Assembly: GCF_013315695.1 (NCBI RefSeq)
Contig: NZ_CP054353.1
Origin: Escherichia coli
Lineage (GTDB): Bacteria > Pseudomonadota > Gammaproteobacteria > Enterobacterales > Enterobacteriaceae
DNA length: 64,000 bases
Strand: one strand, 5' to 3'
The notes beneath the pieces were generated by a model that saw only the letters and a list, made by a program, of their open reading frames with translations, was not told the DNA's origin and made no database searches. A program made the translations under genes and the position numbers. The first letter of the stretch is position 1, and each line of letters starts with the position of its first letter. Shown here one piece after another: positions 6,607 to 9,248 of this stretch.

Positions 6607-8667
6607 ATGACAGTAAAAATTTCTGGCGTGCTTAAAGATGGCACAGGAAAACCAGTACAGAACTGCACCATTGTGCTGAAGGCCAGACGAACCAGCAGCA
6701 CGGTGGTGGTGAACACGGTGGCCTCTGAAAATCCGGATGAAGCCGGACGTTACAGCATGGATGTTGAGCATGGTCAGTACAGCGTCACCCTGCTGGTTGA
6801 AGGTTTTCCGCCTTCACATGCCGGGACCATTACCGTCTATGAAGGTTCCAGACCAGGTACGCTGAATGATTTTCTCGGCGCCATGACGGAGGATGATGTT
6901 CGTCCGGAGGCACTGCGCCGTTTTGAGCTGATGGTGAATGAAGTGGCACGTCATGCCGGAGCGTCATCACAGAGTGCAGCGGCGGCAAAGAAATCCGAAA
7001 CGGCAGCAGCCTCATCGAAGAATGCGGCGAAAACCTCAGAAACGAATGCAGCTAACAGCGCACAGGCGGCAGCGGCCTCGCAGACTGCATCGGCAAACTC
7101 CGCGACAGCAGCCAAAAAATCAGAAACCAGCGCGAAAAATAGCGAGACAGCCACAAAGGCCAGCGAAAAAAACGCAAAATCCAGCCAGACGGCAGCGAAA
7201 ACCAGTGAGACGAATGCCAAAGACAGTGAAGCCAACGCAAAGGTGAGCGAAACAGCGGCGGCGAACTCGGCGAAAGCATCGGCAGCAAGCCAGACGGCAG
7301 CAAAAGCAAGTGAAGATGCTGCCAGAGAATACGCAAACCAGACAGCAGAGCCGTACAGATATGTTTTACAGCCGCTGCCGGATGTGTGGATACCCTTTAA
7401 TGATTCGCTGGATATGATTACGGGCTATTCTCCGGGTTATAAAAAAGTGAAGATTGGTGATAATGTGGTTCAGGTTGCCAGTGATAAACAGGTTAATTTC
7501 AGTCGCGCATCAACGGCAACATATATCAACAAATCTGGCGAACTGAAAACGGCGGAAATTAATGAGCCACGATTTGAAAAAGAAGGTTTATTGATTGAAG
7601 GTCAGCGAACCAACTACATGTTGAATTCAGCAACTCCAGCTTCTTGGGGTAAATCTGCAAATATGAATGTCGCTGAGGTTGGAACTGATAGTTTTGGTTT
7701 TACTTATGGAAAGTTTGTTTGTAATGAATCATTAATTGGGCAAAGTACAACCCTTAATATGGCAGTAGTTTCAACCTCGGGGGCTGTCGATGTATCAGGC
7801 GATAATAAGTGTGTGACGACATCGTGCAGATTTAAAACGGATTTGGAACTCCTGTTAAGGATCAGGTTTGAAGCCTTCGATGGCAGCGCTTCATCTAATC
7901 TTGGATATGCCATTGTTAATACGCGGTCTTTATTGGTTGAAATCACCGGTGTAGCTGCCGACAGGCTCACCGCACGAGTTAACAAAGATGAAGCTACGGG
8001 CTGGATTTTTGTAGAGGCAACGATTCAAGCAAGTAAAGAAACTTACATAACCTCTGCAATACAATACGCACCAAAAAAAGGTGGTGTCGTTGAATCTGGT
8101 GACTATATTTATCTGGCCACCCCTCAGGTTGAGGATGGTTCGTGTGTATCATCTTTTATTATATCAGGAACGACGGCGGCGACGCGCGCAAGCGATATGG
8201 TTACAGTTCCGATTAAGAATAATCTTTATAATCTTCCTTTTACGGTTCTTTGTGAGGTACATAAGAACTGGTATAAAACGCCAAATGCAGCGCCACGTGT
8301 TTTTGATACCGGCGGTCATCAAACCGGAGCGGCTATTATTCTTGGCTTCGGATCTTCGGCAGATGGGCCAGACGGATTTCCTTATTGCGATATTGGTGGA
8401 TCAAATAGGCGTGTTAACGAAAACGCATCGTTGAAAAAAATGGTTATGGGGATGCGTGTAAAGTCAGATCAGTCTACATGTGCAGTAAGTAACGGGCGTA
8501 TATCCAGCGAAACAAAAACCACATGGGAATATATCCGGAGTACAGCAACCATTCGCATTGGTGGACAAACTACAGCAGGATTACGCCATTTATTTGGGCA
8601 TGTGAGGAATTTTCGTCTCTGGCATAAAGAGCTAACAGATGCGCAGCTTGGGGAGGTTGTGGAGTGA
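6607..8667 (+). CDS. stf: Side tail fiber protein with Ala/Ser/Lys/Glu-rich repeat collar and a distinct C-terminal domain
   Basis: 686-aa ORF; repeat block (KKSETAAASSKNAAKTSETNA…); position after lom. Confidence 0.8.
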   Translation: MTVKISGVLKDGTGKPVQNCTIVLKARRTSSTVVVNTVASENPDEAGRYSMDVEHGQYSVTLLVEGFPPSHAGTITVYEGSRPGTLNDFLGAMTEDDVRPEALRRFELMVNEVARHAGASSQSAAAAKKSETAAASSKNAAKTSETNAANSAQAAAASQTASANSATAAKKSETSAKNSETATKASEKNAKSSQTAAKTSETNAKDSEANAKVSETAAANSAKASAASQTAAKASEDAAREYANQTAEPYRYVLQPLPDVWIPFNDSLDMITGYSPGYKKVKIGDNVVQVASDKQVNFSRASTATYINKSGELKTAEINEPRFEKEGLLIEGQRTNYMLNSATPASWGKSANMNVAEVGTDSFGFTYGKFVCNESLIGQSTTLNMAVVSTSGAVDVSGDNKCVTTSCRFKTDLELLLRIRFEAFDGSASSNLGYAIVNTRSLLVEITGVAADRLTARVNKDEATGWIFVEATIQASKETYITSAIQYAPKKGGVVESGDYIYLATPQVEDGSCVSSFIISGTTAATRASDMVTVPIKNNLYNLPFTVLCEVHKNWYKTPNAAPRVFDTGGHQTGAAIILGFGSSADGPDGFPYCDIGGSNRRVNENASLKKMVMGMRVKSDQSTCAVSNGRISSETKTTWEYIRSTATIRIGGQTTAGLRHLFGHVRNFRLWHKELTDAQLGEVVE
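6960..7330 (+). repeat. Low-complexity coding repeat region inside stf
   Basis: Reiterated A/S/K/E/T-rich peptide units; both strands open over this stretch, generating spurious ORFs. Confidence 0.6.
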
Positions 8668-8942
8668 GAGATTTCACGTTGCGTTTCAGTGATAAAGCAG
8701 ATTTCAGGGCATTTCTCAGGAAACTTAACTGGGAAGAGGACGAAGAGCTGCAGAATGCCATTCTGGTTGATGAGATTGGTTTTACGTTCAGTGAGTCAGG
8801 TGTTTCTGCTGACGGGGAGCCTGAATACACGCGAGACGAAGGGTACTTTGTTAATATTCGTCTTCTTGACGATGGCTTTGATGAATCCGTGTTCCGTGAG
8901 TGGGTGGTTACACCAGAGCGCCCGCTCAGGGAGTGGTTTTAA
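8664..8942 (+). CDS. Small acidic hypothetical protein, translationally coupled to stf
   Basis: 92-aa ORF; GTG start overlaps the stf stop codon; D/E-rich composition; function unknown. Confidence 0.5.
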   Translation: MRDFTLRFSDKADFRAFLRKLNWEEDEELQNAILVDEIGFTFSESGVSADGEPEYTRDEGYFVNIRLLDDGFDESVFREWVVTPERPLREWF

Positions 8943-8951
8943 GGGGAGCAG

Positions 8952-9248
8952 ATGGATATCACGCCGATACTTCATGCAATTTGTGCAGTAGCCGTGCAGG
9001 GGCTGGTCGGGTGCATTACCGGTGACTGGGTTTACGGAGCGATAGCGGGTTGTACGTTCTTTATTGCCCGAGAACATACCCAGGCAGAATATCGCTGGAT
9101 TAAGCGTTTTGGTGATGGTCACAGACAGAACATGCCGTGGTGGGGCGGTTTTGATCCGCGTGTGTGGAATGTGGCCAGTCTGATGGATTTTGTGGTGCCG
9201 GTGGTGGCCTGTGCGGGATTGTATGGCTGTATGCTGATTTTTAGCTGA
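8952..9248 (+). CDS. Small predicted integral membrane protein (moron-like)
   Basis: 98-aa ORF preceded by an aaggggag RBS-like motif; several hydrophobic segments. Confidence 0.5.
   Translation: MDITPILHAICAVAVQGLVGCITGDWVYGAIAGCTFFIAREHTQAEYRWIKRFGDGHRQNMPWWGGFDPRVWNVASLMDFVVPVVACAGLYGCMLIFS

Follow-up and report, generated by a model that had tools for sequence, protein, structure and literature searches.

Two small genes behind the side tail fiber gene of a lambda-like Escherichia coli prophage: a probable partner of an exchanged fiber module and a separable membrane protein

Behind the side tail fiber gene stf of a lambda-like prophage in an Escherichia coli chromosome lie two small open reading frames (ORFs) encoding 92 and 98 amino acids (aa), and the question is whether they belong to the fiber, to each other or to neither. 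The locus is the right end of the prophage, beside btsS, where we place the final part of its late (tail) operon, and it lies in a 64,000-nucleotide (nt) stretch of contig NZ_CP054353.1 (NCBI RefSeq assembly GCF_013315695.1), referred to here as the window. The gene order is J, lom, stf, ORF92, ORF98. The explanation towards which we lean slightly is that Stf carries an exchanged distal module, that ORF92 is the dedicated partner of that module, and that ORF98 is an independent, host-derived membrane gene. The parts concerned are these:

6607-8667, plus strand: stf, the side tail fiber gene, 686 aa from an ATG start (ORF list; PHROG 1419 'tail protein', E = 0)
6607-7374, plus strand: N-terminal part of Stf, residues 1-256, attachment domain and Ala/Ser/Lys/Glu-rich shaft (Pfam and PHROG tail-fiber N-terminal families)
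7375-8667, plus strand: C-terminal distal module of Stf, residues 257-686 (430 residues; NCBIfam NF048003, PHROG 5939, BLASTP)
8664-8942, plus strand: ORF92, an acidic 92-aa alpha/beta protein with a GTG start, PHROG 1361
8952-9248, plus strand: ORF98, 98 aa from an ATG start, a predicted three-helix inner-membrane protein, PHROG 1443

ORF92 and ORF98 are real genes under purifying selection and not chance ORFs, because each matches a PHROG profile of unknown function over its full length, each has many exact public copies (on about 850 to more than 1000 contigs), and their divergence is biased towards synonymous change. ORF92 aligns from residue 1 to 92 with the 92-position profile of PHROG 1361 (E = 2.7e-39), and ORF98 matches PHROG 1443 at E = 1.9e-48. 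Between ORF92 and its counterpart in phage 21, the substitutions are mostly synonymous (nonsynonymous and synonymous proportions pN 0.25 and pS 0.88), and the corresponding rate ratio dN/dS for ORF98 is about 0.2. RefSeq lists the products as hypothetical proteins, WP_001204578.1 and WP_000355615.1. The same 4.3 kb recurs at 99.7% identity or more in human E. coli isolates such as UPEC129. A trio of equal lengths is found in phage 21 (OL657228), where it is annotated as side tail fiber, hypothetical protein and putative membrane protein, and the trio is also present in mEp460, ev243, Perceval and the ECOR prophage PhiR40_1 (97% identical). The arrangement is already known from classical phage 21, and its parts are uncharacterized; literature searches on Ybl63, on lambdoid side-tail-fiber chaperones, and on the BASEL and ECOR temperate phages returned no functional study of ORF92 or ORF98. 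As an architecture the locus is ordinary. It holds two widespread, functionally blank families, one of which is relevant to fiber engineering and to models of lateral fibers.

An earlier inspection of this DNA without database searches, here called the sequence-only reading, had noted that the GTG start of ORF92 overlaps the stf stop codon and that a motif resembling a ribosome binding site precedes ORF98. Both observations are correct. The ORF92 GTG (8664-8666) shares the GTGA at 8664-8667 with the stf TGA (8665-8667), and a Shine-Dalgarno sequence, GGGGAGG, lies at 8650-8656, 7 nt ahead of the start. The gap from the ORF92 TAA to the ORF98 ATG is 9 nt, and AGGGGAG is found at 8942-8948.

The fiber is a lambdoid side tail fiber, as seen from its position after J and lom, from the tail-attachment domain at residues 1-131 (Pfam phage_tail_N, PF08400, E = 4e-68), and from matches to PHROG 1419, 3279 and 366. 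It is 64% identical to the phage 21 side tail fiber of equal length, and a DNA-level search of its shaft found no tandem repeats. There is a sharp compositional break inside the gene. Guanine plus cytosine (GC) content is 54%, with 52% at third codon positions (GC3), over 6607-7374, versus 43% with GC3 of 35% over 7375-8667. Since the module stands at 43% against 54% for the N-terminal part, stf is a mosaic gene, which indicates a recombinant fiber with a compositionally foreign distal module. Downstream, ORF92 has a GC content of 48% and ORF98 of 52.5%. The same module forms the C-terminal end of lateral fibers with unrelated N-termini, the similarity being 39-64% identity over the module only (BLASTP); the carriers compared are phage 21, SLUR29 (Drexlerviridae, T1-like), EC100 (T5-like) and JeffSchatz (rV5-like). 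Altogether the module occurs in 221 phage records. Several records labelled Campylobacter phage or Listeria phage (hits H47, H154, H155, H161 and H174-H176) are 99-100% identical to E. coli rV5-like and T1-like fiber loci and are probably mislabelled or contaminated.

Within the module, residues 329-528 form a domain like the head spike fiber of a gene transfer agent (GTA; NCBIfam NF048003 GTA_spike_fiber, E = 4e-13), and the module matches the RcGTA head spike fiber Rcc01080 (PDB 6TB9, E = 3e-6). The C-terminus closes with the conserved motif RHLFGHVRNFRLWHKELTD. In the T5-like phage IrisVonRoten, gp22 is a proximal fiber with a galectin-like C-terminal domain (PMC11990801). The last 430 residues of Stf would be a horizontally exchanged, polysaccharide-binding distal module with a lectin-like C-terminal end. 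This fiber module is among the commonest lateral-fiber ends binding O-antigens or other glycans in coliphages, including those of the BASEL collection and phage-therapy candidates.

ORF92 accompanies this module wherever we could follow it. The related loci are 80 E. coli prophage loci from IMG/VR, retrieved through ORF98, and the contexts of ORF92 are drawn from these together with the annotated phage collection. ORF92 is present in 75 of the 80 loci; the other five lack the module as well, and in none of the 80 does the module occur without ORF92. The upstream region is intact in 73 loci, and in every one of them the end of the module-bearing ORF is no more than 12 nt from the start of ORF92. 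The stf stop and the ORF92 start overlap in 70 of 70 loci, by 4 nt in 38 and by 1 nt in 32, so that the overlap first noticed in this prophage is the rule of the family. Homologs of ORF92 appear in 196 phage records (tblastn), as hits that nearly always run into the annotated fiber gene, and the records with ORF92 and with the module are split alike by genus (Escherichia, 160 versus 171; Salmonella, 15 versus 17). Virulent phages keep the same order: a fiber gene, an overlapping ORF92 homolog and usually another fiber gene. The module and ORF92 also stand together behind unrelated N-terminal anchors in SLUR29, in EC100 and IrisVonRoten, and in JeffSchatz. In IrisVonRoten (MZ501075), the order is gp22-gp23-gp24, and the ORF92 homolog is gp23 (10740-11018), annotated 'tail fiber protein'. 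Gp24 has been described as T-shaped, and gp23 is undiscussed (PMC11990801). That paper calls the proximal fiber Gp22 in a figure legend and Gp23 in the text.

ORF92 is probably a dedicated distal-end accessory of the Stf module, judging from its genomic linkage; it may be a chaperone or cap, and possibly also an adaptor. The sequence-only reading had listed chaperones among the things that small morons at the tail fiber end can be. For ORF92 the chaperone fits best. Morons are recognized by their presence and absence among related phages and by a deviating composition, and ORF92 is never separable from the module. Because it cannot be parted from a structural module and strictly lytic phages conserve it too, it is neither a moron nor a lysogeny function. 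The Pfam scan found no Peptidase_S74 intramolecular chaperone in Stf and no Caudo_TAP gene downstream of it, and we count the resulting need of the module for a helper in favor of ORF92. Translational coupling would cause ORF92 to be made in step with Stf. It would serve at the fiber's distal end as a cap or an assembly chaperone; in relatives it may also help to dock a second short fiber. If ORF92 does fold, cap or branch the fiber, it must be co-transferred in fiber swaps made for re-targeting. It is missing from current structural models of such fibers, for example as gp23 of IrisVonRoten (PMC11990801).

The protein is strongly acidic, as had been seen from its translation, with a pI of 4.25 and 23 Asp or Glu residues versus 11 Lys or Arg. 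An exhaustive HMMER search of 1.84 billion representatives gave 53 matches, and the credible ones are all about 90 aa long. Proteins of 1,200-2,700 aa among the matches were rejected on inspection as unrelated internal-repeat proteins. There are also longer homologs of 110-188 aa in Comamonas thiooxydans, Pantoea and rV5-like phages (loci L115, 5432-5998; L120, 5484-5999; L090, 5001-5333), in which an ORF92-like domain is followed by a C-terminal extension. The positions conserved in the family are D36, G60, N64, GY(F/H)VNxR and a C-terminal PxRxW(A). The AlphaFold2 model, with a mean predicted local distance difference test score (pLDDT) of 91.7, has five strands (2-8, 33-39, 42-47, 53-57, 61-67) and three helices (11-20, 27-32, 74-80), and its BFVD matches are uncharacterized phage proteins only.

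The remark that neither small protein resembles the known larger tail fiber assembly proteins still stands, since Pfam and NCBIfam scans of both are without significant match. ORF92 and 27 family members gave no Pfam match at E ≤ 0.001, including PF02413, and ORF92 gave no NCBIfam match. Profile searches of the two small proteins against PDB sequences returned only noise, namely PsaL (E = 1.5) and telomerase p19 (E = 0.03). The profile and structure searches that the sequence-only reading had proposed lead to the PHROG 1361 and 1443 families, and for ORF92 to no homolog among characterized tail fiber chaperones. ORF92 is outside the Tfa/gpU, gp38, gp57A and intramolecular-chaperone families, though it is placed where a fiber chaperone would sit.

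The Caudo_TAP assembly proteins (lambda Tfa, Mu gpU, P2 gpG) are about 175-195 aa long. Like their genes, ORF92 lies directly downstream of the fiber gene (73 of 73 loci, with the 4- or 1-nt overlap); it is expected to act on the distal receptor-binding end, and it is co-inherited with the distal module when fibers are swapped. Unlike them, it is half as large, it has no Pfam Caudo_TAP match, it matches Mu Tfa neither in PDB sequence nor in fold searches, and its partner is a module of the lectin/GTA-spike-fiber type rather than a lambda- or Mu-type tip. T4 gp57A is a small acidic general fiber chaperone, needed for fiber folding, which folds as an all-alpha coiled coil and has its gene away from those of the fibers. 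ORF92 shares its small size and acidity, but it is alpha/beta in the model and strictly adjacent to its fiber, and no similarity between the two was detected. Chaperone caps (the Peptidase_S74 domains of T5 pb1 and K1F; gp27 of Alteromonas phage V22 and gp9 of A5) are also small and specific to the C-terminal end of the receptor-binding protein, with the gene order fiber then chaperone, and like them ORF92 could cap the fiber transiently. The caps have an alpha-helical core with beta-hairpin 'tentacles' (PMC10579305), whereas ORF92 is predicted to form a five-stranded sheet with three helices, and an S74 domain is missing from Stf. On the predicted fold, the Alteromonas 'chaperone cap' family was ruled out for ORF92.

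This prophage differs from most of its relatives in what follows ORF92. A gene of 227-346 aa, here called X, stands between ORF92 and ORF98 in 55 of the 80 loci (as in PhiR46_1, at 4292-5332 of locus L002), and ORF92 and ORF98 are adjacent, as here, in 19. Without X, this prophage is a minority unbranched form. The X proteins match tail-fiber PHROGs such as phrog_4563. Their N-terminus is conserved as M(A/V)T(S/K/V)TVIPxDIxxLK, mostly MATSTVIPxDIxxLK, in lambdoid, T1-like and T5-like phages, and the remainder varies; by eye, the C-terminal end looks like a Peptidase_S74-like chaperone region. In encoding a proximal and a short distal fiber, the relatives of this locus are like the T5-like phages with branched lateral fibers (DT57C LtfA/LtfB and IrisVonRoten gp22/gp24), and the galectin-like domain of IrisVonRoten gp22 belongs to a C-terminal module of the Stf type (PMC11990801). 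Unlike them, this prophage has no distal fiber gene. In DT57C, a Peptidase_S74 domain forms the end of LtfA, and no ORF92-type gene has been described there (PMC4728585); LtfA/LtfB was rejected as a published equivalent on account of this other architecture.

Could ORF92 then be primarily a structural branch connector that docks X on the distal end of Stf, the loss of X here having left an empty socket or a terminal cap? X directly follows ORF92 in the 55 loci, and the N-terminus of X is shared across three groups of phages while the rest is variable. Of the 59 loci with ORF92 type 1 or 2, 58 have X; types 0 and 3, those of phage 21 and this prophage, are confined to X-less loci, and one type of Stf C-terminal end (S3) pairs with both kinds of ORF92. 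Since S3 pairs with both, recombination tends to cut between stf and ORF92, with ORF92 moving with the genes downstream. The ORF92 type therefore follows the presence or absence of X and not the type of Stf end, which weighs against a chaperone dedicated to Stf and fits an adaptor at least as well. Furthermore, the distal gp24 has been modelled on the proximal gp22 in IrisVonRoten (PMC11990801), where the gene between them encodes the ORF92 homolog. Still, we consider it fairly unlikely that docking X is the primary role. The X-less ORF92s of phage 21 and of this prophage, 59% identical, are intact despite saturated synonymous change, so ORF92 is kept under purifying selection without a second fiber; rV5-like phages have ORF92 and no X-type gene; D36, GYFVN and PxRxW are identical in the X-less and X-bearing types; and the co-inheritance of ORF92 and X may be mere physical adjacency. 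Because ORF92 is intact, selected and provided with the same motifs in the X-less lineages and in the rV5-like phages, it must do something for the Stf module itself.

ORF98 is a module separate from ORF92. It is 70-100% identical across loci in which ORF92 and the Stf end each span 32-100%, and the Spearman correlation between the identities of ORF98 and ORF92 is 0.16. It is absent from all the Drexlerviridae, Demerecviridae, Queuovirinae and Vequintavirinae that carry the module and ORF92. In other prophages its homologs directly follow unrelated receptor-binding genes, often overlapping them: a Peptidase_S74 fiber in a siphovirus prophage as well as in a P2-like one of Leclercia, and elsewhere a GDSL-esterase tailspike, other fibers or a small tail protein. 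The lambda-like and P2-like prophages with ORF98 after fiber, spike or assembly genes are found in Leclercia, Silvania, Pantoea, Desulfovibrio and Halomonas (phiHAP-1). In phiHAP-1, the homolog lies between the tail-fiber assembly gene and the sheath gene, a slot that we take to correspond to the Z/fun accessory slot of P2. The sequence-only reading had treated ORF92 and ORF98 as a pair, which does not agree with their being adjacent in only 19 of the 80 loci and parted by a fiber gene in 55. In several prophages (L093-L098), the cargo beyond the ORF98 homolog is a conserved 79-aa ORF (PHROG 3893) followed by UmuD-like and IMS (UmuC-like) genes; the latter pair is SOS-mutagenesis cargo at the prophage end.

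The several hydrophobic segments read from the ORF98 translation are three stretches, at about 4-24, 26-39 and 74-97, and the AlphaFold2 model (pLDDT 91.2) has three helices, at 4-23, 26-53 and 74-97. There are more than 538 homologs, with sizes of 95-100 aa. In 96 sequences, H8, Q16, R40, E41, Q44, E46, Y47, W49, R58, P62 and W64 are invariant, and a near-invariant block, AREHTQAEYRWI..FG.GKR.NMPWWGGFD, spans the last part of helix 2 and the loop that leads to helix 3 in the model. This conserved loop may be either cytoplasmic or periplasmic. Foldseek recovers only the protein's own family, named 'Ybl63' in UniProt, with top matches at 74-95% identity and relatives at 42-57% in Comamonas, Pigmentiphaga, Aureimonas and Novosphingobium. 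We found no Pfam family, solved structure or paper for ORF98, and Pfam and NCBIfam scans of it and of aligned members were not significant.

Members of the ORF98 family are found both as cellular genes and in prophages. When one genome was scanned for each species, 43 loci emerged; they lie in Escherichia, Leclercia, Silvania, Pantoea, Aeromonas, Comamonas, Acidovorax, Pigmentiphaga, Chelativorans, Devosia, sphingomonads, Halomonas and Desulfovibrio. In two sphingomonads the homolog follows ligA at a chromosomal, non-phage locus, and in Aeromonas it lies beside pirin, again in a chromosomal locus that is not phage. The Aeromonas homolog (L003, L105, L106, L116) converges on a RIO1/Kdo-kinase-like gene, beyond which are two lipid A acyltransferase genes; this neighborhood is a weak hint of an envelope or lipopolysaccharide connection.

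What ORF98 does must be judged mainly from these contexts. We read it as most likely a host-derived accessory gene acting at the inner membrane. The benefit that seems most plausible is a change in the envelope of the lysogen, for instance exclusion or receptor masking, and in this our confidence is a little short of even. The host-derived accessory nature is suggested because it is absent from the virulent carriers of the module, occupies accessory-gene slots, has cellular homologs and deviates in composition. These two marks of a moron are found in ORF98, which is present in some related phages and absent from others and has a GC content of 52.5% against 43% in the Stf module; for this gene the moron or superinfection-exclusion idea of the sequence-only reading is plausible on such evidence. 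The gene is independent, sits in an accessory slot after the fiber genes and would act on the envelope through its invariant loop. It can be likened to the morons and conversion proteins of the tail region (HK97 gp15, P2 Z/fun, phi80/N15 Cor, T4 Imm), being a small membrane protein encoded after fiber genes, at the end of the lambdoid late operon and in the P2-type slot between the fiber assembly and sheath genes, and absent from related virulent phages. Unlike them, it is far more conserved across bacterial classes (42-60% identity), has chromosomal homologs and gave no sign of its own promoter in a simple scan. No sequence relationship to them and no exclusion phenotype is known for it. ORF98 lends itself to study as a candidate for a new envelope or exclusion function encoded by prophages, and hundreds to thousands of sequenced E. 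coli isolates carry it.

Several observations weigh against this view of ORF98 as an independent lysogen gene. The simple promoter scan found no sigma-70-like site on the plus strand over 6600-9250, and in many prophages the start of the homolog overlaps the preceding structural gene. The lack of a visible promoter and these overlaps argue for late expression, like that of virion genes, rather than expression in the lysogen. Of the 80 closest E. coli loci, 75 carry ORF98 together with the module and ORF92, and prophages of Comamonas kerstersii and Chelativorans again combine ORF98, the module and a gene like ORF92; this co-occurrence keeps a functional link to the fiber module alive. In virulent-looking Aeromonas jumbo phages, the homolog adjoins a helicase or terminase gene.

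Late expression would suit a lytic function, and ORF98 might be holin-like, set the timing of lysis, or shield progeny from re-adsorption to debris. No promoter-like site lies between stf and ORF98; in several prophages the homolog overlaps the upstream fiber or assembly gene by 4-8 nt, and in one siphovirus prophage it lies between the fiber gene and the endolysin cassette. Three predicted transmembrane helices in 98 aa would be as in class I holins, and there is a weak match to Pfam Phage_holin_8 (E = 0.0045). That match is sub-threshold, however, and at E ≤ 0.1 just 4 of the 96 family members show it, the protein ends in ...MLIFS and so has no charged C-terminal tail, and its loop is extremely conserved, unlike holins. 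The lysis genes of lambdoid phages are located elsewhere in the genome, which counts against a lysis role here, and ORF98 sits after the fiber genes beside dinI and not in a lysis cassette. Chromosomal copies occur in non-phage loci, and virulent phages with the same fibers manage without it. A holin role is unlikely, and we regard the late lytic functions taken together as improbable. Another possibility is that ORF92 and ORF98 form a two-gene cassette apart from fiber assembly, such as a soluble factor with a membrane partner serving exclusion, anti-defense, or toxin and immunity. The two are adjacent here and in phage 21, and ORF92-like and ORF98-like genes are neighbors in Comamonas, Pantoea and Chelativorans prophages. 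But all the virulent carriers have ORF92 without ORF98, many prophages and chromosomes have ORF98 without ORF92, a fiber gene separates the two in most E. coli loci, and their divergence is uncorrelated (r = 0.16). The anti-defense role suggested by the sequence-only reading has nothing in its support: the PADLOC profiles gave no match to Stf, ORF92 or ORF98 at E ≤ 1, the library being one of defense systems and not of anti-defense proteins. Such a cassette is very improbable.

A bolder proposal goes beyond reading ORF92 as a fiber accessory and ORF98 as an independent membrane gene, and we hold it to be doubtful as a whole. It would make ORF92 the founding member of a new-fold class of fiber chaperones or branch adaptors, about 90 aa in size, for lateral fibers of the lectin/GTA-spike type, needed by all such fibers of lambdoid, T1-like, T5-like and rV5-like coliphages, and at the same time make ORF98 a miniature, conserved effector of the inner membrane, captured by temperate phages to exclude competitors and to remodel the surface of the lysogen. 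Under this proposal, ORF98 might be a metal-dependent enzyme or might regulate a universal envelope pathway, and its captors would be temperate phages of alpha-, beta- and gamma-proteobacteria.

The surroundings of the three genes are as follows:

2096-5788: J, upstream of lom and stf (ORF list)
5856-6455: lom, between J and stf (ORF list)
6559-6588, plus strand: terminator-like hairpin between lom and stf, a 13-bp stem and a T-run (terminator scan)
9255-9274, minus strand: GC-rich hairpin and T-run, the terminator serving the convergent dinI-like gene (terminator scan, sequence)
9366-9614, minus strand: dinI-like gene, convergent on ORF98

Phage 21 has an annotated terminator at the place equivalent to the hairpin at 6559-6588, and late transcription presumably passes this hairpin through Q antitermination. 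The hairpin at 9255-9274 is the sole one at the end of the stf-ORF92-ORF98 block, where it may terminate in both directions. Two strong plus-strand terminator-like hairpins, at 5807-5826 and 6559-6588, flank lom, which in its place between J and stf resembles an insulated unit of the moron type. Beyond ORF98, the dinI-like gene has its own terminator and a sigma-70-like promoter at 9651-9680 (TTGACA, 18 nt, AAAAAT; 10 of 12 matches). This gene is probably prophage cargo that the lysogen expresses; it stands at the end of the prophage, immediately ahead of btsS, which is followed by btsR. The junction of prophage and chromosome falls between the dinI-like gene and btsS, at about 9620-10113, where RefSeq annotates a 66-nt pseudogene fragment (locus L145, 6543-6608).

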